Source of the DNA: Alphaproteobacteria bacterium
GTDB taxonomy: Bacteria; Pseudomonadota; Alphaproteobacteria; UBA7887
Length of the DNA stretch: 64,000 nucleotides
Reading direction: 5' to 3'
NCBI GenBank assembly: GCA_965216755.1
Contig: CBDCGL010000011.1
Span: 1,664,001-1,728,000, forward strand
Both the position numbers and the translations under genes were made by a program. Within the stretch, counting starts at the first letter, position 1; every line of letters starts with the position of its first letter. Under the pieces are notes generated by a model that was not told where the DNA came from, ran no database searches, and was given only the letters and a program-made list of their open reading frames with translations. Positions 54,463 through 64,000 of this stretch are shown here, in pieces.

Positions 54463-55170
54463 TCAGCGCCGCCACTGCAAATAGCTGGTGTTCAATGTCA
54501 AAGCCACCACGCACACGATCAAATAGAACGTGACGGCCTCAGATCGGATCAAGCCTTGAACAAACTCGCCAAAGTGTAGCGAGAATGACAAATACCCGAA
54601 CAGCGTATGCAAAAAATATGATGACTGGAACGTTTGCAAATGGGCGACAAACCAAAACGCCAGCAACACAGAAACAGTGATCAACGCCGCCACGATTTGG
54701 TTGGAGGTCAAAGAAGAAAAGAATTGGCCAACCGCCAAGCACGCCATACCGAGCAGCACGAATCCGATGTAGCCGCAAAAGATTGTCGATGTTTCGGGCT
54801 GGGCAAACAGATATAGTGGGATGAGATCTATCATGGTGCCCACCGTCGCCAACAGCAGGATTGTCACCGCACCCAGATACTTGCCCAGCACCACTTGCCA
54901 GGGTCGCAACGGCAATGTCTGCAACAGCTCCATCGTCCGGTCGCTATATTCGGTCGCGAACAAGCGCATGGAAATGACCGGGCTCAGGACAATCAGCAAT
55001 ATGCCCATATTCTGAAATGTCTCAGCCATCGTCGCCAAATTGGTCAAGAAAATGTTGTACGTGAAAAAATATCCCGTCCCAATCAGGAACACGGCCACGA
55101 CAAAATACGCGATGGGCGAGCGAAAATAGTGCCACATCTCTTTTTCATAGACGGCAAGAACACCTCTCAT
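54463..55170 (-). CDS. ABC-2 type permease (GldF-like)
   Basis: KE..YFRSPIAY, MRLFATE..TMELL.TLP, LGKYLG and TSNQIVA motifs. Confidence 0.9.
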   Translation of the reverse strand: MRGVLAVYEKEMWHYFRSPIAYFVVAVFLIGTGYFFTYNIFLTNLATMAETFQNMGILLIVLSPVISMRLFATEYSDRTMELLQTLPLRPWQVVLGKYLGAVTILLLATVGTMIDLIPLYLFAQPETSTIFCGYIGFVLLGMACLAVGQFFSSLTSNQIVAALITVSVLLAFWFVAHLQTFQSSYFLHTLFGYLSFSLHFGEFVQGLIRSEAVTFYLIVCVVALTLNTSYLQWRR

Positions 55171-56129
55171 GCGGCCAAATCCTGAGACTGGGCAGTGCCA
55201 ACATAGTGCAGAAACACGTTCTCCAAAGTCGGCAATCGGCGCTCTAGCCTGAGCAAATCCCATCGCGGCGCTACGGTGCGGGCGATCGCCGCTTCAATTC
55301 CGTCGCGGTCATCGACGATGCATTCCACATCCAAGCCCTGGCGGCCCGTCGCTCCGACTGCATCTTCGAAATGCACGCTATTGACGCCGTCAACCGACAA
55401 AAGTTCCTGTCGTATGTCGTCGACCGGTCCGGTCACCCGCAAGGCAATATGATTGGTGCGTTCGACCGCCCGCTGTAGCCCGGCTGGCGTGTCGATCGCC
55501 AACAGTCGCCCTTGATAAATGATGGCGACACGCGCACAAATCATGGTCACTTCCGGCAAAATATGGGTGCTCAACAGCACCGCGTGATCCGCCCCGAACG
55601 AGCGTATGACATCCCGCGTTTCGTGCGTTTGACCAGGATCCAAGCCGATTGTCGGCTCGTCCAACAACAACACATCGGGCTTGCCCAATAGTGCCTGGGC
55701 TAATCCGACGCGCTGCCGGTATCCTTTGGAAAGCTTAAATATCTCTCGGCGACGGACTTGTTCCAAGTGGCAGGCCGCCGTAACCCGATCAAGTTCCGAC
55801 GAAATCTCGCCGCGCGGCACACCCTTGGCCTTCGCGACAAAGCGTAAATAGCCGGTTACATCCAGTGTCTCGTACAGCGGTGGGTGTTCGGGCAAATAAC
55901 CAATGTGCTGCGCAGCTGCGGAATTCTCCGTTGCCATATTGTAGCCGGCCACTCTGACCGTGCCAGAGCTGGCGGTCGTGTAACCCGCAATCATCCGGAT
56001 TGTGGTCGTCTTGCCGGCCCCGTTCGGACCAAGGAACCCCAAAATCTCGCCCTTATCCACAGCAAACGACAAACCGTGGATGATGGTCTTGGTCCCATAG
56101 CGCTTCGTCACCGAATCAAGCGCAATCAT
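55167..56129 (-). CDS. ABC ATP-binding protein (GldA-like)
   Basis: GPNGAGKT, LSKGYRQR, LDEPTIGLD and STHILPEV motifs. Confidence 0.93.
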   Translation of the reverse strand: MIALDSVTKRYGTKTIIHGLSFAVDKGEILGFLGPNGAGKTTTIRMIAGYTTASSGTVRVAGYNMATENSAAAQHIGYLPEHPPLYETLDVTGYLRFVAKAKGVPRGEISSELDRVTAACHLEQVRRREIFKLSKGYRQRVGLAQALLGKPDVLLLDEPTIGLDPGQTHETRDVIRSFGADHAVLLSTHILPEVTMICARVAIIYQGRLLAIDTPAGLQRAVERTNHIALRVTGPVDDIRQELLSVDGVNSVHFEDAVGATGRQGLDVECIVDDRDGIEAAIARTVAPRWDLLRLERRLPTLENVFLHYVGTAQSQDLAA

Positions 56130-56167
56130 TAATCCGTCGCGTTATCCTGCAATGTCCCAAAAGCACA

Positions 56168-56193
56168 GGAGGCCTCCGAAACCGAAGGCCTCC
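56168..56193 (-). terminator. Stem-loop or partial intrinsic terminator after the lactonase gene
   Basis: Minus strand GGAGGCCTTCG-GTTT-CGGAGGCCTCC (11-bp stem) followed by TGTGCTTTT. Confidence 0.6.
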
Positions 56194-56214
56194 AAAACCG
56201 CAATATTCAACGGG

Positions 56215-57066
56215 TTAGTCGTACCATTTCTCGCCCATTGATTCATACTGCTTGATGCTGTGGCCAAACCACATCGGCGCGTCTTCCAATGCGCTCGTCA
56301 TCTTCAGCCGCTCAACCGAGTTAAAATAGTCAAGAACGCTGTAATTCAATCCGGCTGGGTGACCTTCTAGGTTCTCTTCCATCCAAATCGCATCTTGGGT
56401 CAGGATCACGGTGCCGGTATTCGGCAATTTGACCTTGACCGACTGATGTCCAAACGTGTGACCGGGCGTGCTCATGATCATGACGGTGCCGTCACCGAAA
56501 AGGTCATAGTCGCCGTCCAGCGCGAAGTAGTTGAAATCGCGCGCATCATCGTAGTCGGCCATGATATGGGCGCCACTCGGGCGTTGGAACTTCTCGGGCC
56601 ACCAGGCCTGGTACAATTCTTTTTGCTGGATCACGTGGATCGCATTCGGGAACATTTCAATGTTACCGATATGATCCAAATGTGAATGAGACGTGATCAC
56701 CACTTTGACGTCGTCGGTGCTGTAACCCAGTTTTTCCAGCTGCTTGTCAATCACGTCGTCGCGCGTTTGACCCGGCTGCAAGAAGTCGCAAGACCCCTGC
56801 GCCCAATGCGTATTACACGCGCCGTCCGAAATCGCCACATTGTTGCCGGTATCATATACAACAACGCCATTCGGATGGTCCAAGATCCACATGTTGATCG
56901 GGATCTTGATGTCGCGCGCTTCAGGATAAGTCGGAATCAGTCCCTGAATGTTAAATGGTCCAAATTGCCCACTGGCAGTCCAGTAAAGTTTTTGCGCTGA
57001 TGCTGTCGATGCGCCTGTCATACAAAGCGCGCCCAACACCGCTGCAGCGATACCCAATTTTCTCAT
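56215..57066 (-). CDS. Exported metallo-beta-lactamase-fold hydrolase, AiiA/AttM lactonase family
   Basis: Sec signal MRKLGIAAAVLG..ASA; DTG, HSHLDH, DLFGDG, TPGHT and C-terminal GH; AGGA RBS. Confidence 0.88.
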   Translation of the reverse strand: MRKLGIAAAVLGALCMTGASTASAQKLYWTASGQFGPFNIQGLIPTYPEARDIKIPINMWILDHPNGVVVYDTGNNVAISDGACNTHWAQGSCDFLQPGQTRDDVIDKQLEKLGYSTDDVKVVITSHSHLDHIGNIEMFPNAIHVIQQKELYQAWWPEKFQRPSGAHIMADYDDARDFNYFALDGDYDLFGDGTVMIMSTPGHTFGHQSVKVKLPNTGTVILTQDAIWMEENLEGHPAGLNYSVLDYFNSVERLKMTSALEDAPMWFGHSIKQYESMGEKWYD

Positions 57067-57370
57067 GGCTTCCTTCCTAACGATCAAGGCTCCACGCGTC
57101 TTCGCGCGGCTCTTTGTCTCTTTTCCAGCAGCTCGATACGCCGTCCGTTTCCCACGGCAACTTTGAACGAGGATCTGTTCGTCCTCCGACATCTCAGAAA
57201 ACAAATAAACTTGCGATCTACCGCGCGATCCCCTGAGCTGGTTGCGGCGCCGACATTTTAACCATGTTTCTTACTGAAAAGGGAACGATTTTTCTGGCTT
57301 ACCCAGGCCACCCCTCGGCTCGTTCGGATCCCCATTGGTCGTGACCACAAACGATTTCTCGCCCGTTCGC

Positions 57371-57691
57371 TCAGATCTTGACGACCGGCAACCTCGGGGC
57401 CTGGCAAATAAGGGCGGACGCCGGCACCGAGCATGGCCCCCAGCGCAGCTCGATCCCAGCCGCAGCCAGACGCGCCGCCGATGCGTCGTCAACAAATCCG
57501 ATAATCACCGTTTGCGGCTGCGAACGGCAAATCAAGTCAACAACGTGATCCGCAGTCCGCTCAACATTTCGCAAGAAGTGTTGTTGGTTGCTCGAAACAT
57601 CAAACACACCAACCCACCGCGCGCGGGCGAAAAAGGGCGAAAGTGGCGCGTCGTTAGCATCCGCTAACAACGTCATCGCGATGCGTTTCAA
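57371..57691 (-). CDS. NifB/NifX-like (FeMo-cofactor-binding family) small protein
   Basis: MKRIA.., LSPFFARA (compare SxHFGRA) and RLAAAGI; TTG start. Confidence 0.6.
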   Translation of the reverse strand: MKRIAMTLLADANDAPLSPFFARARWVGVFDVSSNQQHFLRNVERTADHVVDLICRSQPQTVIIGFVDDASAARLAAAGIELRWGPCSVPASALICQAPRLPVVKI

Positions 57692-57848
57692 CAGACCGCC
57701 ATAAGATGATAGAGTTAACGTCGCTTGATGCGAGAGGATGCGAGTAACAATGTGGGCGTGCCTTGATCCACGTTAGCGTTGTGACAGGCGTGCCGATATG
57801 TGGAGCGTCGCCAGCCGCGATAACGCGGCGGCACGACATTGTGAACAT

Positions 57849-58613
57849 ATGGATGTGTTGAGAAACGCGGTGCCGATTGCAGGAGCTCGGGCCGAGAACC
57901 CGTGCGCGGCATGTCTGGTCCGCCAATGGGCGATTTGCCAGCCGCTGGACGATGAAGCCCTGCACCTGATGAAATGCCTGAAATCTCGAGACCGGCTCAT
58001 CACAGCTGGCAGCGAACTTTACGCGGAAGGAGAGCCGCTCGACGACCTATTCACAATACTCGAAGGCTGGCTGATTCTTTATAAGCTGTTGGAAGATGGG
58101 CGTCGGCAGATCACGAAAGTCGGACTGTCCGGCGATTTCATTGGTTTTCGACCGGATCTAAAAGCACCAATGGACCATTCCGCGCAAGCGCTGACCGACG
58201 TGAAATTATGCGTTTTTCCGCGAGAAACGATCATGAGCCTGTTTCGCGAACAACCGGAACTGGCCATGCGGCTTACTTGGCTGATTTCCAGCGACATCAT
58301 GGTTGCACGCGAGCGGTTGACCAGCCTAGGGCGGCGCACAGCGCGAGAACGAATCTCTTATTTCTTGCTTGAGTTGTATTATCGCGTTCGACTACGTCAC
58401 AGCGATCCGGTGGGTACCGCGATTCCCTTACCGCTGACACAGGAACATATCGGCGATGCTCTAGGCCTGACTTCGGTCCACGTTAACCGCACGTTGCGGG
58501 CGCTACGCGAAGACAACCTGATCCAGGTCGTTAATCGCACGTTGCACATTCTCGATCCCGACAAGCTCGCCGATGCGGCCGGCTTTGATGAAAATCAACG
58601 TGTCGACATTTAG
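57849..58613 (+). CDS. Crp/Fnr regulator, probably O2-sensing (FnrN-like)
   Basis: N-terminal CAAC..C, DGRRQI, LCVF Cys, LGRRTARER and HTH LTQEHIGDALGLTSVHVNR. Confidence 0.9.
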   Translation: MDVLRNAVPIAGARAENPCAACLVRQWAICQPLDDEALHLMKCLKSRDRLITAGSELYAEGEPLDDLFTILEGWLILYKLLEDGRRQITKVGLSGDFIGFRPDLKAPMDHSAQALTDVKLCVFPRETIMSLFREQPELAMRLTWLISSDIMVARERLTSLGRRTARERISYFLLELYYRVRLRHSDPVGTAIPLPLTQEHIGDALGLTSVHVNRTLRALREDNLIQVVNRTLHILDPDKLADAAGFDENQRVDI

Positions 58614-58668
58614 AGCATCGCATAATGCGCTAGATCCCAACCGGGAACTCAAAGCATAGGGAGATTCC

Positions 58669-58989
58669 ATGCGACGCGTTCGTCTGATGCTGGTCGGCAC
58701 GCTTGCCTTGTCGTCCGTTGGTACCGCGCACGCGTTCGGCGACGCCGAGCGTGGCCGAGATATTGCGGAACGCTGGTGCACATCTTGTCATGTCGTCGCA
58801 AGCGACAATGCGCCGTCTGGGACAGATGCCGTGCCGAGTTTTAATGCAATAGCACGCAATCCACAGAACGACGCGGACCAACTAACTGTAAAACTCGCGA
58901 CGCCACACCCGGCAATGCCGGATTTTCAATTGTCGACTCAAACGATCGAGGATTTGGTCGCGTATTTTGGTGTTCTTGGAGGGCAATAG
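58669..58989 (+). CDS. Small class I cytochrome c
   Basis: Signal peptide, GDAERG, CTSCH and distal HPAMP. Confidence 0.9.
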   Translation: MRRVRLMLVGTLALSSVGTAHAFGDAERGRDIAERWCTSCHVVASDNAPSGTDAVPSFNAIARNPQNDADQLTVKLATPHPAMPDFQLSTQTIEDLVAYFGVLGGQ

Positions 58990-59024
58990 GAGTCTGGTCG
59001 GCGGCACACCAAGCGCAGGCGCAT

Positions 59025-59849
59025 TCAACGAATATCGACAGTAATGCCGAGTTCGCGCCCCGCCTCGCGCAGGACTTCCGGATCGAACGGGGGCGGTTCA
59101 ACATCGATACCTTGCGCCAAACCCTCGGCGACGGCCTCCAAGACATGAACGCGCGCGGTCCATTTGTGATCCGCGGGAATCACCGTCCAAGGTGCGGCGC
59201 GAGTGGCGGTTCGATCGAACATATCCTGGTAGGCCTTTTTATAGTCAGCCCACCTGGTACGGTTTCGGAGATCTTCTTTGGTGAGTTTCCAGCGTTTGTA
59301 GGGATTTCGTAGGCGCTCGCGAAACCTTTCCAACTGCTCTTGCTTGGTGATGTGCATAAAGATTTTGACGATCCGCACATCATCGTCGATCAGCAAATGT
59401 TCGAAGGCGTTGATCTCGTCGTAAGCGCGACCCCAGGTTTGATCTGAAACCAGTGATTCAACCCTTTCGACTAGCACTCGCCCGTACCAGGACCGATCAA
59501 AAATCGAAATGGTTCCAGAATGCGGCATGCGCTGCCAAAAGCGCTGCAAATAGTGCTGGTCCAACTCGACGTCGGTCGGCGCGCCGATCGGCCACACCTT
59601 GAAACCGCGTGGATCAAGGTTTGCGGTCAAACGGCGGATCGCGCCGCCCTTGCCAGCTGCGTCCCACCCTTCAAACACCACCACCGCGCGACGGCGCTGA
59701 TTGTAGTACGCCGTGAGCAACCGCCCCATGCGTTTCTGCAGTCCGGCCAAAGCGGCTTCGTATTCCGTCTTGACGGCAAACCTGTTCGCCATTTGCACGT
59801 TTTTGAGACGCGGTGAGTTCTCTTGGGGTTCGATCTTTGTGCGGTCCAT
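59025..59849 (-). CDS. ppk2: Polyphosphate kinase 2 family, single domain
   Basis: FEGWDAAGKGG Walker A, FDRSWYGRVLVERV and lid KRWKLTKED. Confidence 0.92.
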   Translation of the reverse strand: MDRTKIEPQENSPRLKNVQMANRFAVKTEYEAALAGLQKRMGRLLTAYYNQRRRAVVVFEGWDAAGKGGAIRRLTANLDPRGFKVWPIGAPTDVELDQHYLQRFWQRMPHSGTISIFDRSWYGRVLVERVESLVSDQTWGRAYDEINAFEHLLIDDDVRIVKIFMHITKQEQLERFRERLRNPYKRWKLTKEDLRNRTRWADYKKAYQDMFDRTATRAAPWTVIPADHKWTARVHVLEAVAEGLAQGIDVEPPPFDPEVLREAGRELGITVDIR

Positions 59850-59949
59850 AGGCCGTGATTCCCGGCTTAGTTGGCATCGCGCGCCACGTGATCACGCAAA
59901 GAATCCGCCGCCGATCGCAAGTAAAATTGCATCGTGATCGGCAACGCCC

Positions 59950-61092
59950 CTAAGTATTACCGTTGTTCTCCTGCGAAAGCGAGATCATGACCGGCGCTGG
60001 GCTGATCAGAACCGTGCGCACAAGCTCTGATTGCTTGGCCGTTCCGGTCTTGCGAAAGATCTGGTTGAGCTGATTACGCAGTGTGTTTTTGCTCAGCGTG
60101 AATGCCTGCGCGGCTTCGTCAAGGCTTTGGCCACGGACCAGCGCGACCAGCAATCTGGCCTCAGCCGGTGTCAGATCAAACAGGCGCTCAAGGACTTCGC
60201 CGGGAATATCCGGTTGTGTTTCGCCGTCGGAGACGAATACCGCCGCCAACTGGGCAATGCCGTCGACTTTGGCGCCGCCATCGACGGGCAACACCATCGT
60301 CAGCCATGGCGCCGCCAATGACGGCCGATCGATACGCATGACTCCAACTGGCGTGCGCGCGGCCTGCCGGCCGGCCGCCGCCACTTGGGCGATAATCCTG
60401 CGAAGCCGCCCCGTTTCTTTTGGAACCGCGGCACACAGGCCGGTCCGATCCACCGACAATCCATCGCGGAGCTCAATGACGGCGCGGGCGTGACGGTTGG
60501 TCTGCAATACCCGACCCACATTGTTGACCACTAGGACACCAATCGGCAGAAAGTCGAGCGTCGACTGCGCCGCCATGCTTTCCGCACGCTGGCCGGCGAG
60601 GTTGCGATGAATCTGGATTGCCCGGCGCACATGAGAGGCCATTTCTGACGCCCGCTGCCGGCGCGCGCCGCCATCTTTTGGACGCAGCAACAATCGCGCG
60701 CGTTGGCCGCCGCCGGCATGGCTGAAGTAACCGAGAATGGCCGATTCAGACCGCTCAACTGCATGTTCCGTTGTCAGATCTGCAACCAGCTCGTCGTCAG
60801 CGACATTGGTGGGCGGCCGATCGACGGTCGCCACATCGCCGCCAAGTGCGGGGCCGTCGGTTCCGCCCACCGTGGCCGCCACGGCGCTTTCGCCGACCGG
60901 TGCACTTATCGAACCATCTGGCACGGAATCTTCTTGAACGATCAGCGCCAAACCCGCCGGCGCCAAGATTGTTTGCAGCGACTCGAGCAGCCGCGCCATG
61001 GACCCGCCGCTCATAGCGCAATCGTAGACGGCACCGATTATATCAACACACTCGGCCTTGGTTTGTCGATTACTCATCTTTACAGTCGCCAC
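59950..61092 (-). CDS. PAS-like + LuxR-type HTH transcriptional regulator
   Basis: C-terminal FDLTPAEARL..TLRNQLNQIFRKTGTAKQSELV; start may be slightly downstream. Confidence 0.85.
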   Translation of the reverse strand: MATVKMSNRQTKAECVDIIGAVYDCAMSGGSMARLLESLQTILAPAGLALIVQEDSVPDGSISAPVGESAVAATVGGTDGPALGGDVATVDRPPTNVADDELVADLTTEHAVERSESAILGYFSHAGGGQRARLLLRPKDGGARRQRASEMASHVRRAIQIHRNLAGQRAESMAAQSTLDFLPIGVLVVNNVGRVLQTNRHARAVIELRDGLSVDRTGLCAAVPKETGRLRRIIAQVAAAGRQAARTPVGVMRIDRPSLAAPWLTMVLPVDGGAKVDGIAQLAAVFVSDGETQPDIPGEVLERLFDLTPAEARLLVALVRGQSLDEAAQAFTLSKNTLRNQLNQIFRKTGTAKQSELVRTVLISPAPVMISLSQENNGNT

Positions 61093-63228
61093 CTAACTAT
61101 TTGACGAAGTTTCGTCCGACTCTGGCCGGGCACCGAAATGCGCCCATTTTGCCCGACCACCACGGTTCTCGATGTGATTGAGCAAAGCTGAGACGACCCG
61201 TCGATCAAAGATGCCGCCCGCATCCTCGAGCAGCGCGTTGGCCGCGTGATCCAGAGACATCGCGTCGCGATATGCGCGAACGCTCACCATGCCAACGAAG
61301 GCGTTGGCCACGGCAAGGATGCGCGCGCACATCTCGATTGCCTCACCCCGCAAGCCCAAGGGGCCGCTGCCATCCCATCGCTCTTTCGCTTGACGCACCG
61401 TCTCGACGACCGGCCCGTCGAAATCTACGCCGGCCAGTAAGCGCGCGGTTTCCTCACACAACCCGTTGAGCTGCGCACGTTCATCATCGGTGAGCGCGTC
61501 GGTTTTGCGCAGCAATTCCGGTGCGACCAGCAATTTGCCAACATTGAGCAAACGACCGGCAATTTCGACAGTCTCGACTTGCTGCTCACTCAGCCGCATT
61601 TCTTGTGCGATCGCCCGCGCGACGTCGGACACATGGGCTGACTGGCCGGCAGCGAAAGGATCGCGGCGATCGACCAACCCAACCAGCGTCTCGATCAGTT
61701 GGCCAAGCACACGTTCGCGTCGCTCCTGCGCCGTGACGACGTTTGTAATGTCGTCAAAGCGGACGAGCACCCCATCCGGTCGCAGGCGGGTCACCGGCAA
61801 GCGCAGATGAATCGTCGTGACCACATGGTGTTGGCCATCTTCGTCGTACCGGTGAACATGGTGGGCAGGAAGGCCGTTATCCAAGACCCTCTTGTTGATC
61901 GCTTCGATGGCGGCAGCCCGCGCCGGACCGATGACCTGCGTCATGGTCTTGCCGATCATATCGCGCGGATGCATTTCAACCGCTTGCGCCGCCGCCATAT
62001 TGGCGAAAATGTAGCGCCCGGCCCGATCAACGGCGATCAACGGGTCGGTCAAGCCATCGGTGACGACGCGCAGGAAACTTGTAACATTCTCGAATTTCTC
62101 GGCGGTTTCGCGATAGCGTTCGGCCGCTGCCGTGGCGCGCAACGAGCTGCCATGACGCCAGACTGCCACCAAAGCAATCGCGACTCCGGCGAGTATGGTC
62201 AAAAAGATCGTCGACAGCGTCCGCGCGCGTGCGTTGATTTCCGTTAGCGCCTCGCGTGACGCTATGGTCCGTACAATATACCAGGGCGCTTGGGTCAGTG
62301 CCCGCCCGGTCACCAAGACATCTTCGCTCTTGTAGTCCCGACCAATGGCGAACCCGCCGGGTCTGCCAATGACAAATGCCGCCGCCAGATCCGGCGTATC
62401 TTGCGCTAGCACACGTTTGAGGGGCGCAGAGCCATCACTGAGTGGCGACAGATATTCGATGGTTTCTGCGCCCTTGCGAACCAAATACGTTTCCGCGCCG
62501 GCCGGCACATCGCCGGGTTGTTGGAGTTGGTCGAACAGCTCATTTCCGACCAGCCGTAAACCGACGACCAGACCTATGGGTTCAGACGCGCCATCGTCTG
62601 CCTGAATGGCGTAGACGGGCACCGCGAAGCCCATGGTTGGTTCACCGCTGGCGCCGACATACATGTCGGCAACACCGATGCGGCCGCTTGCCGCATCGGC
62701 CATGGCACGTCGGACGGTGCCGGCCGGCGGCGGCATCGTTGCCGTTGCCACGACAACATTCCCGTTCACGTCGGTTAGCGCGAGGCCGGCAAGCCCGACC
62801 CGTTCGACATTTGCGGCGACGATATCGGCGGTATCGGCTATGGGCGTGTCGAAACCGCTTCGCTGGGCCGTCACCTCCAAAAGGTTGCGAAGGTACGAAT
62901 ATTCCGCCGGTTCCGGCTCGCTCGCGCCCCCGTCGGACGGCAGCATGAGCTCGGTCATGTAGATTTGCAGCGATGCGTTATCCGCAAGGTCGCGCAAATT
63001 GGCGATTTGTGAATCCAGCCATTGACCGACCGCGGCCGCGCGCGTGTCAGCAACTACGCCCAACCGAACCTGCCACGACTGAAGATCGCGCTGTCGCTCT
63101 GCTTCGACAAACCGGAAAACACCCCAGACCCCGGCAAATCCAGCCAGAATGAAAGCGACCGCGACGACTATGACGAAGCGGTTTGCGCGCCCCGTCGGAA
63201 TACGTCCGCCGATCGCCAGCTCAGACAT
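61093..63228 (-). CDS. TM - periplasmic Cache-like - TM - PAS - degenerate HD-GYP protein
   Basis: Two TMs flank a ~300-aa periplasmic region; PAS (YIFAN..MIGKT); HD-GYP fold with RDPFAAGQS, LLNVGK, AKERWDGSGP and VANAFVGMVSVRAYR. Confidence 0.85.
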   Translation of the reverse strand: MSELAIGGRIPTGRANRFVIVVAVAFILAGFAGVWGVFRFVEAERQRDLQSWQVRLGVVADTRAAAVGQWLDSQIANLRDLADNASLQIYMTELMLPSDGGASEPEPAEYSYLRNLLEVTAQRSGFDTPIADTADIVAANVERVGLAGLALTDVNGNVVVATATMPPPAGTVRRAMADAASGRIGVADMYVGASGEPTMGFAVPVYAIQADDGASEPIGLVVGLRLVGNELFDQLQQPGDVPAGAETYLVRKGAETIEYLSPLSDGSAPLKRVLAQDTPDLAAAFVIGRPGGFAIGRDYKSEDVLVTGRALTQAPWYIVRTIASREALTEINARARTLSTIFLTILAGVAIALVAVWRHGSSLRATAAAERYRETAEKFENVTSFLRVVTDGLTDPLIAVDRAGRYIFANMAAAQAVEMHPRDMIGKTMTQVIGPARAAAIEAINKRVLDNGLPAHHVHRYDEDGQHHVVTTIHLRLPVTRLRPDGVLVRFDDITNVVTAQERRERVLGQLIETLVGLVDRRDPFAAGQSAHVSDVARAIAQEMRLSEQQVETVEIAGRLLNVGKLLVAPELLRKTDALTDDERAQLNGLCEETARLLAGVDFDGPVVETVRQAKERWDGSGPLGLRGEAIEMCARILAVANAFVGMVSVRAYRDAMSLDHAANALLEDAGGIFDRRVVSALLNHIENRGGRAKWAHFGARPESDETSSNS

Positions 63229-63409
63229 GGGTTATCGACCGCACGCCGCGCGCGCGCCGCCGCGGCCAACCTTCGGCTCCTGAACAACGACGGTATTTCC
63301 GCACGTCCCCCGCCCCGCCTGACTTAATCGATGGGTGCTCGACACAGCGCGATAGTATCAACGCCGAGTGTTAACGAAGTCCTCATTACTGAAGTGTTAA
63401 CGTGGGGTT

Positions 63410-64000
63410 ATGATCATGCCCCATCAAAGCCCAGCGTTACCGCCCATTGTCCGCCGCGGGTGTCTCGCTCTAGCGATCGCCGTGATCGCTTGGTGCGGAA
63501 ATATGACCACCGTCACAGCGGAAACCGATGCGGCGATATTTCGCAGTACCGAGATTCGCAAGGATGGCCTGCGCCCATTTCCCAAATGGACAGGTGCCCT
63601 GGAAAAATACTTCCAGGAACGAGCCAATGCTGAGGGCGGTTGCGAAGCACCGGAATTCAACCGCTGCCACTATGAAGCCTGGCAAACATTTATCGATAGT
63701 TTGCGCGATCGAGACCTCAAGACCCAACTCAAAGAAGTCAATCGGTTCATGAACCGGCGGCGCTACATCACCGATCCGATCAACTGGGGTGTCAAGGATT
63801 ATTGGGAATCACCCGGCGAATTTTTCGAAAAATATGGTGATTGTGAAGATTATTCGATTGCCAAATTCTTGACCCTGCGCGCGCTGGGGATCAATCCGGA
63901 CAACATGCGGATTGTGATTGTTATGGATTTAAACCTGAACGTTCAACATGCCGTATTGGGTGTATATCAAGATGGCAAAATCTTGGTCCTCGACAACCAA
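63410..64000 (+). CDS. Transglutaminase-like cysteine proteinase (BTLCP/LapG family); runs off the window
   Basis: Not in the ORF track. Manual translation shows a signal peptide, VNRFMN, DYWESP.EF, and the GDCEDY (Cys), HAVL (His), VLDN (Asp) triad. Confidence 0.92.
   Translation, partial: MIMPHQSPALPPIVRRGCLALAIAVIAWCGNMTTVTAETDAAIFRSTEIRKDGLRPFPKWTGALEKYFQERANAEGGCEAPEFNRCHYEAWQTFIDSLRDRDLKTQLKEVNRFMNRRRYITDPINWGVKDYWESPGEFFEKYGDCEDYSIAKFLTLRALGINPDNMRIVIVMDLNLNVQHAVLGVYQDGKILVLDNQ

Follow-up and report, generated by a model that had tools for sequence, protein, structure and literature searches.

The receptor and protease genes at the end of the window

The DNA analysed here, referred to as the window, is a stretch of 64,000 nucleotides (G000:C11:1664001-1728000) from an alphaproteobacterial genome of 5.02 Mb (11 contigs, 99.8% complete). 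Its final 2.9 kb are filled by two head-to-head genes, one encoding a membrane receptor with a degenerate HD-GYP domain that resembles DvhD of Desulfovibrio vulgaris Hildenborough, the other a cysteine protease of the BTLCP family that resembles LapG and DvhG. The protease gene runs past the window end, and was completed on segment L002 (C11:1724000-1743999), whose positions are converted to window coordinates by adding 59999. The features of the pair are listed below in window coordinates, TM standing for a transmembrane segment.

61093..63228, minus strand: receptor gene, DvhD-like, 711 aa, ATG start, encoding TM1, dCache, TM2, PAS and degenerate HD-GYP in this order
63109..63177, minus strand: TM1, about aa 18-40 (Kyte-Doolittle hydrophobic segment aa 13-42, peak 2.56)
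62224..63108, minus strand: periplasmic dCache-fold domain, aa 41-335 (AlphaFold2 model and Foldseek)
62158..62217, minus strand: TM2, about aa 338-357 (hydrophobic segment aa 335-360, peak 2.56)
61738..62058, minus strand: cytoplasmic PAS domain, aa 391-497 (Pfam PAS_4, E 1.2e-13; aligned to the PAS of 9rc0)
61195..61686, minus strand: degenerate HD-GYP domain, aa 515-678 (Pfam HD_5, E 4.9e-30)
63229..63409, no strand: divergent intergenic region, 181 bp from receptor start to protease start
63410..64000, plus strand: LapG/DvhG-like BTLCP gene, passing the window end to window-equivalent 64093 (L002:3411-4094, 227 aa)

A first-pass annotation of this DNA had described a catalytically dead HD-GYP receptor, with a large periplasmic domain between two TMs and a PAS domain, facing a BTLCP with an intact Cys-His-Asp triad, and had proposed that such a domain may have been recruited independently for the role that LapD plays in Pseudomonas. 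The architecture was as described: the two hydrophobic segments enclose a periplasmic stretch of about 295 aa, and the PAS domain follows the second one. The structural searches favour this proposal, and link the receptor to a system already described. In a single-sequence HMMER search, the PAS/HD-GYP part of the receptor had as best PDB matches 9rc0 (E 1.4e-44, aa 388-691) and 9rbz (E 1.4e-35), two entries titled 'HD domain/sensory box protein', which the literature identifies as DvhD (DVU1020). The family profile matched the PAS/HD-GYP part of DvhD with 231.7 bits (E 1.3e-67), and the runner-up, V-cGAP3, with 125.7 bits.

For the periplasmic domain, no PDB chain was matched by phmmer or by the family profile, and its structure was therefore predicted from an alignment (A2). 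This alignment holds 69 sequences, that of the window and those of 68 among 75 related loci covering the domain, seven being omitted to limit its size (L033, L034, L051, L057, L071, L074 and L077). The resulting AlphaFold2 model had a predicted local distance difference test score (pLDDT) of 91.9 and a predicted TM-score (pTM) of 0.89. Its top Foldseek match was 9rc2, 'DvhD, periplasmic domain' (E 1.3e-11, TM-score 0.73 normalised to the target, 17% identity), followed by generic dCache sensor domains (E 2.8e-8 to about 2e-6), of which the next-best were amino-acid and organic-acid chemoreceptor domains. All three receptor domains have DvhD as their nearest relative of solved structure, and since they agree in this, the two receptors belong to one family, without a further independent recruitment. 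The role of LapD analog proposed at first pass is supported by this homology.

The window receptor belongs to a large group of close relatives. Among the 120 homologues listed, identities were 45-58% with coverage of at least 91%, and the sources, where named, were metagenome-assembled genomes of Alphaproteobacteria, Kiloniellales, Hyphomicrobiales or Proteobacteria. The best 150 relatives among representative proteins all scored at least 553 bits, and all are closer to the receptor than DvhD is.

The sequence past position 64000 completes the protease at 227 aa, with a Pfam match to Peptidase_C93/BTLCP (E 7.4e-16 at full length). In alignments to solved LapG structures (4fgo, E 4.5e-28; 4u65_E, E 1.7e-20), C145, H180 and D195 coincide with the catalytic residues, and D144-C145-E146 forms the calcium/catalytic motif, so that the intact triad announced at first pass is borne out, all of its residues lying within the window. 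Neither the triad nor the D-C-E motif varies among 58 aligned BTLCP sequences (alignment A3, the window's and 57 of 66 qualifying matches; L060 with its 4 stop codons, L051 and seven second copies adjacent to type I secretion system (T1SS) genes in Sneathiella loci were dropped). The NCBIfam LapG equivalog model gave 92.3 bits for a cut-off of 320, and the protein is therefore not a strict LapG equivalog. Its N-terminus, Arg-Arg followed by a hydrophobic stretch, looks like a signal peptide. This BTLCP is the only one found in the genome.

The first-pass annotation knew of no characterised degenerate HD-GYP receptor in such a role, and DvhD turns out to be one. In the parts of the two papers drawn on here, Karbelkar et al. 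(2024) report that, in a Pseudomonas fluorescens chassis lacking lapD and lapG, DvhD controls the LapG-like protease DvhG in a manner dependent on cyclic di-GMP (c-di-GMP), and that the cytoplasmic part of DvhD binds c-di-GMP (PMC10990149). Font et al. (2026) describe DvhD as metal-free and unable to hydrolyse c-di-GMP, without activity with any ion tested, and as having two nucleotide sites, one canonical and one bridging; they propose that it works by inside-out signalling and is 'functionally analogous to LapD' (PMC13090378). As DvhD has already been characterised, the window does not reveal a new kind of system. The concept of a dead HD-GYP receptor controlling a LapG-like protease is already published; what is added here is its abundance in Alphaproteobacteria and a remodelled nucleotide pocket.

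The degenerate HD-GYP domain and the predicted protease contact

HMMER alignments to solved HD-GYP proteins, including 9rbz and 5z7c, together with a residue read-out, reproduced every motif replacement and both retained motifs reported at first pass. In the receptor, HS has become Q529-S530, HDIGK is L561-N562-V-G-K565, HHE is A614-K615-E616, GYP is G622-P623 by deletion of the tyrosine, and DxFD (read as DAFD at first pass) is N642-A-F-V645. The ERWDG motif (E616-R-W-D-G620) and the RxYR motif (R651-A-Y653-R654) are kept. Columns were counted in 42 aligned proteins (alignment A1), namely the query and 41 proteins picked from the 120 listed homologues, and all counts out of 42 below refer to this set. 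The Asp of HD is replaced by Asn in 40/42, the first His of the HH pair is found in none and the second in one, and the Asp of DxxD is Asn in 39/42. The GYP tyrosine is deleted in 33 of the proteins and present in two. The first His, that of HS, is retained in 35/42 and is Gln in the window receptor, and E616 and D619 are conserved.

On these motif counts, an active phosphodiesterase is rejected. The domain shares the HD_5 fold with the catalytic HD-GYP phosphodiesterases PmGH (4mcw), V-cGAP3 (5z7c) and PA4781 (4r8z), with E-values of 6.9e-12 to 2.1e-13, and 3.1e-8, but it lacks their HD, HH and DxxD metal ligands and the GYP tyrosine, and it is part of a membrane-bound protein with a dCache domain.

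The ligand residues of DvhD were mapped by hand onto the receptor via the 9rbz alignment, where an offset of 490 from the chain numbering to that of DvhD gave the expected letter at ten named positions. The DvhD contacts reported are Y523, L577, K582, Y621, M646, R650, Y652 and E668 for the canonical site, and K520, P567 and R569 for the bridging site (PMC13090378). Kept in the receptor are L577 as L579 (40/42), M646 as M647 (39/42), R650 as R651 (41/42) and Y652 as Y653 (37/42), as well as R653 as R654 (41/42). According to the same paper, c-di-GMP stabilisation of DvhD is impaired by mutations of R650, Y652/R653 and M646, the strongest effects being those of R650 and Y652/R653 (PMC13090378). 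Two lysines have undergone conservative swaps, K582 to R584 (Arg in 29/42) and K520 to R522 (41/42). The equivalent of R569 is lost, being Glu in the receptor and in 29 of the 42 proteins.

In the periplasmic domain, conservation is strongest in the sequence ENASLQLY (aa 83-90), in which N84, S86 and L87 are invariant and Q88, L89 and Y90 nearly so. It sits on helix 45-55 of the model, immediately after a break in the long first helix alpha1. In DvhD, the helix alpha1' is the published predicted docking helix for DvhG (PMC13090378), and by analogy we infer that the ENASLQLY helix may correspond to it. Modelling of the periplasmic domain with the protease, suggested at first pass as a check, gave a median score of 0.51 for the dCache domain and the mature BTLCP (runs at 0.55, 0.51 and 0.50), for 0.01 with the best of three controls. 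At least 92% of the contacts agreed among the three runs, and the pLDDT of the partner was at least 75, no interface being reported. In the calibration, 58 of the 80 solved complexes passed the mark, as did 2 of the 110 mismatched pairs; a score no higher than 0.60 occurred in only 7 of these 80 solved complexes and in both of the mismatches that passed. The prediction thus weakly supports binding of the BTLCP by the dCache domain.

Distribution of the gene pair, candidate adhesins and neighbouring genes

A scan of one genome per species yielded 228 stretches encoding relatives of the receptor, the best 80 of which (L006-L085) were analysed. They are labelled Rhodospirillales/Rhodospirillaceae, Thalassospiraceae, Magnetovibrio, Sneathiella, Hyphomicrobiales and similar, many being metagenome-assembled, and two labels fit poorly with the rest (one Verrucomicrobia, one Candidatus Cybelea). 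With the window proteins as tblastn queries, 65 of 71 informative loci, defined as those with at least 1000 nt upstream, proved to have a divergent BTLCP on the upstream side of the receptor (9 of the 80 had too little upstream sequence). The distance between the two starts in these 65 loci had a median of 219 bp and ranged from 117 to 387 bp. Beside the receptor of one locus (L060:6937-7503, minus strand) lies a BTLCP-like match that is only 29% identical and contains 4 stop codons, and may be a decayed or frameshifted copy. Seven Sneathiella loci (L071, L073, L074, L075, L077, L079 and L082) have a second BTLCP beside an HlyD gene, at about positions 490-1200.

Frequencies in the class were measured on 301 alphaproteobacterial genomes, evenly drawn, with the unpublished genome G428 included in the BTLCP tally. 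The profile of the periplasmic domain (E ≤ 1e-10) detected 50 of these genomes, in 41 of 254 genera, and PF06035 (BTLCP) matched in 93. When the two lists were cross-read by hand, a BTLCP was present in 46/50 receptor-bearing genomes versus 47/251 receptor-less ones. Thus approximately 1 in 6 sampled genomes has the receptor, and half of the BTLCP-bearing genomes have it. Receptor and BTLCP were at most 3 kb apart on one contig in 42 of the 50 genomes, mostly in divergent arrangement; they were convergent in G296 and G452 and co-directional in G028 and G004, and G235 had only a 99-aa fragment. In four more genomes, the BTLCP was on a different contig (G270, G303 and G374) or 12 kb away (G305). 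In the convergent pairs, which belong to one genus (G296:C127 and G452:C172), the BTLCP match lies in an ORF (open reading frame) of 438-450 aa, which suggests a longer or fused form of the protease.

Related genomes are not independent, and these linkage counts are therefore descriptive rather than a test statistic. Chance adjacency of receptor and BTLCP is rejected on these counts: as both the degenerate pattern and the gene pair recur in dozens of genomes, neither is accidental. The co-occurrence with a BTLCP that was proposed as a check at first pass is thereby borne out.

Of the 47 BTLCP-bearing class genomes devoid of a DvhD-like receptor, several have proteases that score 160-225 bits with PF06035, versus about 50-80 bits for the receptor-linked ones, and may constitute a separate subfamily with another regulator.

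The possibility that a canonical LapD serves the window protease was also considered. The LapD_MoxY_N domain (PF16448) was not found in this genome, in which four candidates were scored. In 201 genomes of the phylum taken as a positive control, the same search retrieved matches in 47, typically of 130-160 bits and in ORFs of about 650 aa, and hence it works; a canonical LapD elsewhere in the genome is rejected on this basis. In the class sample, PF16448 matched in 5 of the 301 genomes, always weakly (27-40 bits).

A set of type I secretion genes starts 3 kb past the protease, and the ORF at the head of this row is included in the list.

L002:7123-8448, minus strand: HlyD (TIGR01843, 411.2 bits, above cut-off)
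L002:8497-10758, minus strand: ABC exporter, LssB-type (TIGR03375, 943.6 bits, cut-off 693.1)
L002:11044-12516, minus strand: TolC (TIGR01844, 280.3 bits, above cut-off)
L002:12836-13633 (G000:C11:1736835-1737632, outside the window), minus strand: 265-aa ORF heading the TolC-ABC-HlyD row, without Pfam family

An HlyD homologue was present in the flanks of 17 of the 80 related loci, on the protease side in 10 and on the other side in 7. Candidate substrates were sought in the whole genome. Among ORFs that reach 300 aa, only two contain at least three RTX nonapeptides. One encodes a protein of 1660 aa (C11:4326466-4331445, minus strand; L004:6463-11445) with T1SS-143 repeats, a BapA/LapF-like region (below cut-off), Ig/cadherin-like domains, a weak VWA match and RTX repeats; the sequence TAAG occupies its aa 95-98. 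The other, of 1156 aa, is without di-alanine. When the first 140 residues of the 1660-aa protein were used as query, two further paralogues were found in the genome. The first is a 313-aa RTX protein (C11 at about 3493341-3494282, minus strand) with TAAG at aa 102-105, in the context 'SLDDLLATAAGPE'. The second is the 265-aa ORF listed above (E 2.8e-5 to the 1660-aa protein), which contains 'LGDLLAWTAGS', with AWTAG in place of ATAAG, and has no RTX repeats. Their alignment (A4) displays a common N-terminal module followed by a conserved context 'L-D-D-L-x-A-T-A-A-G'.

In the two RTX proteins with TAAG, this sequence is therefore located about 95-105 residues from the N-terminus. The cleavage site of LapG and DvhG is given as [T/A/P]AAG following a retention module (PMC13090378), and the two proteins with a perfect site are accordingly predicted substrates. 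The T1SS and RTX adhesins with which the first-pass annotation expected such a pair to co-occur are thus both found in this genome. The gene for the 1660-aa adhesin candidate is flanked on one side by that of a protoglobin-GGDEF diguanylate cyclase (L004:3806-4924, plus strand), and on the other by that of a sigma-54 enhancer-binding protein (L004:12334-13791, plus strand) with a weak VpsR-domain match (22.5 bits, cut-off 23.7). This suggests that c-di-GMP also acts at the adhesin locus.

The remaining genes around the pair are as follows.

59950..61092, minus strand: neighbour ORF of 380 aa, whose listed GTG start abuts the receptor stop codon
L002:4155-4694, minus strand: cytochrome b561 gene, between protease and secretion genes, apparently unrelated
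L002:5111-7113, plus strand: OmpR-type response regulator and histidine kinase genes, between protease and secretion genes, apparently unrelated

The 380-aa ORF has a weak LuxR/GerE-type helix-turn-helix (HTH) at its C-terminus, with matches to GerE (E 0.0047) and PAS_4 (E 0.01) that are both below the Pfam cut-offs. It may be co-transcribed with the receptor gene, and may be a transcriptional arm of the receptor/protease switch. A homologue was found beside the receptor in 10 of the 80 loci, on the same strand in 3 (L006, L007 and L016) and on the opposite strand in 7, all Sneathiella. A promoter and terminator scan of 59800-64000 returned a single promoter-like site, for an expectation of 1.5, and the divergent intergenic region had none. 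Further upstream, window positions 54463-59849 encode apparently unrelated proteins: an ABC-2 type transporter pair, a metallo-beta-lactamase-fold protein, a Crp/FNR regulator, a c-type cytochrome and PPK2.

A predicted inside-out switch and its alternatives

We consider it very probable that the gene pair encodes a receptor of the DvhD family together with its protease. The likeness to the Desulfovibrio system extends over several levels. Both receptors have the order TM, periplasmic dCache, TM, PAS and metal-free HD-GYP; in both cases the receptor gene adjoins that of a LapG-like BTLCP with the C-H-D triad and the D-C-E calcium motif; and both systems come with a T1SS, with RTX adhesins bearing [T/A/P]AAG, and with a genome in which no LapD domain is found. 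The differences are that the window host is an alphaproteobacterium whereas the DvhD host is a sulfate reducer, and that the periplasmic domains are only 17% identical in the structural alignment, with no match in sequence searches. In the window receptor, the first His (here Q529), the GYP tyrosine and the equivalent of Glu668 are missing as well. DvhG is TM-anchored with a 180-residue linker, whereas the window protease, with its 227 aa and signal-like N-terminus, has no room for such a linker; most DvhG orthologues are reported to carry signal peptides (PMC13090378). The receptor and protease genes are divergent and the adhesin genes unlinked, unlike those of Desulfovibrio.

With LapD and LapG of P. 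fluorescens, the system would share the presumed logic, in which a dead c-di-GMP domain controls a periplasmic BTLCP that releases an adhesin secreted by the type I pathway. The proteases are homologous, but the receptor has none of the LapD_MoxY_N, HAMP, GGDEF and EAL domains of LapD, to which it is unrelated in sequence and fold.

In the mechanism that we propose, the degenerate HD-GYP domain would hydrolyse nothing, and would bind a cyclic dinucleotide in the cytoplasm, most likely c-di-GMP. Binding would rearrange the dimeric PAS/stalk helices, and the change would cross the two TM helices to the periplasmic dCache domain, which would then hold or inhibit the neighbouring LapG/DvhG-like calcium-dependent cysteine protease. 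At a lower nucleotide level the protease would be free to cut 'LDDL[IL]ATAAG' after the N-terminal retention module of RTX proteins, exported by the LssB-type T1SS, and cleavage would release them from the cell surface. The steps that we infer from DvhD and LapD are the binding of the nucleotide, the direction of control and the cleavage. Taken as a whole, we regard this mechanism as likely.

Several observations weigh against it. On the substrate side, the adhesin N-termini matched no NCBIfam family with E-values up to 10, and the label 'retention module' is therefore based on layout and TAAG context alone. The adhesin genes are located at 1.03, 3.49 and 4.33 Mb, versus 1.73 Mb for the receptor locus, and their N-terminal module was detected in only 2 of the 301 class genomes, this one and G350; no adhesin N-terminus was found near the receptor in the 80 related loci. 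As for the pairing, six of the 71 informative loci (L020, L027, L036, L058, L072 and L076) are without upstream BTLCP, having instead genes for a thiamine pyrophosphate (TPP) enzyme, a gamma-glutamyltranspeptidase (twice), DnaE, a FecR-like protein and a sugar transferase, and four of the 50 receptor-bearing class genomes (G203, G265, G292 and G449) have no BTLCP at all. In the nucleotide pocket, DvhD has eight canonical-site contacts, and the window receptor departs from three of them. The Y523 column has Phe (F525) in the window receptor (Phe in 27/42, Tyr in 15/42); the equivalent of Y621 is deleted; and the E668 column is Ala in the receptor, Ala, Ser or Thr in 39/42, and Glu in none. In DvhD, Y621 is the GYP tyrosine and hydrogen-bonds a phosphodiester, and E668 specifies guanine (PMC13090378). 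The column of the bridging P567, where a P567T variant of DvhD is reported as disruptive (PMC13090378), is Pro in 40/42 and Ala in the window receptor, with Pro as the next residue.

Judged by these alignments, the alphaproteobacterial clade is more degenerate than DvhD, lacking the GYP tyrosine and the guanine-specifying Glu. Because the DvhD residues of strongest effect are conserved while two specificity or phosphate contacts are not, the receptor is read as one that would still bind a nucleotide, with a ligand preference that may have changed. It could be, then, that signalling is inside-out as proposed and that the alphaproteobacterial clade reads another nucleotide, such as 3'3'-cyclic GMP-AMP (3'3'-cGAMP) or pGpG, or accommodates c-di-GMP with another pose or stoichiometry. 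DvhD itself is reported to bind 3'3'-cGAMP with a dissociation constant (Kd) of about 0.5 uM (PMC13090378), and the missing Glu, the deleted Tyr and the displaced bridging proline would all fit with such a change. We nevertheless find it unlikely, as the residues of strongest mutational effect in DvhD are those conserved here, and the protoglobin-GGDEF cyclase gene beside the main adhesin candidate fits control by c-di-GMP.

The same losses in the pocket could also mean that the domain has abandoned nucleotides altogether. The receptor would then be an outside-in sensor, whose dCache domain binds a small molecule in the periplasm and whose dead HD-GYP domain is a nucleotide-free protein-interaction output, for instance towards a LuxR-type regulator, the protease being merely co-regulated. 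dCache domains are typically ligand sensors, and among the fold matches it is chemoreceptor domains that rank next after DvhD; the receptor gene also has a putative LuxR-type gene directly beside it, with homologues in 10 of the 80 loci. Yet 70 of the 80 loci are without this regulator, whereas 65 of 71 have the BTLCP, and the HTH matches of the regulator are below the Pfam cut-offs. Moreover, the clamp formed by R-x-Y-R, Leu and Met is kept in 37-41 of the 42 proteins despite the loss of catalysis, which is hard to explain without a ligand, and we judge an outside-in sensor to be quite improbable. Least plausible of all, to the point of being barely credible, is that the HD-GYP domain remains an enzyme with an unconventional active site. 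Its good HD_5 score and the conserved E616 and D619 could be invoked in favour, but the HD, HH and DxxD Asp ligands are replaced by non-coordinating residues in the receptor, and almost clade-wide, and DvhD, with its milder loss, is reported inactive with any ion tested (PMC13090378).

The Dvh system has been placed 'mainly' in deltaproteobacteria (PMC10990149) and in Desulfovibrionales (PMC13090378), in the parts of these papers drawn on here. A literature search of titles and abstract openings, which did not cover the published class-level distribution (PMC13090378), found no alphaproteobacterial case of the DvhD type. A broader view is that the DvhD/DvhG module, far from being peculiar to Desulfovibrio, acts as the principal regulator of LapG-type proteases in Alphaproteobacteria as a class, in an older or parallel clade whose remodelled pocket may read a different dinucleotide or bind c-di-GMP anew, and whose receptor would dock a soluble protease via the ENASLQLY helix; we put this forward as a speculation, and a doubtful one.

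These findings matter at two scales. In this genome, the protease, the secretion genes and at least two RTX surface proteins would form one predicted adhesion switch. At the scale of the family, dead HD-GYP receptors that take the place of LapD, known until now from sulfate reducers, turn out to be widespread in Alphaproteobacteria, and this abundance bears on the place of origin of the module. It also provides a large set of natural variants of both the nucleotide pocket and the helix presumed to dock the protease, which could guide mutagenesis of DvhD.

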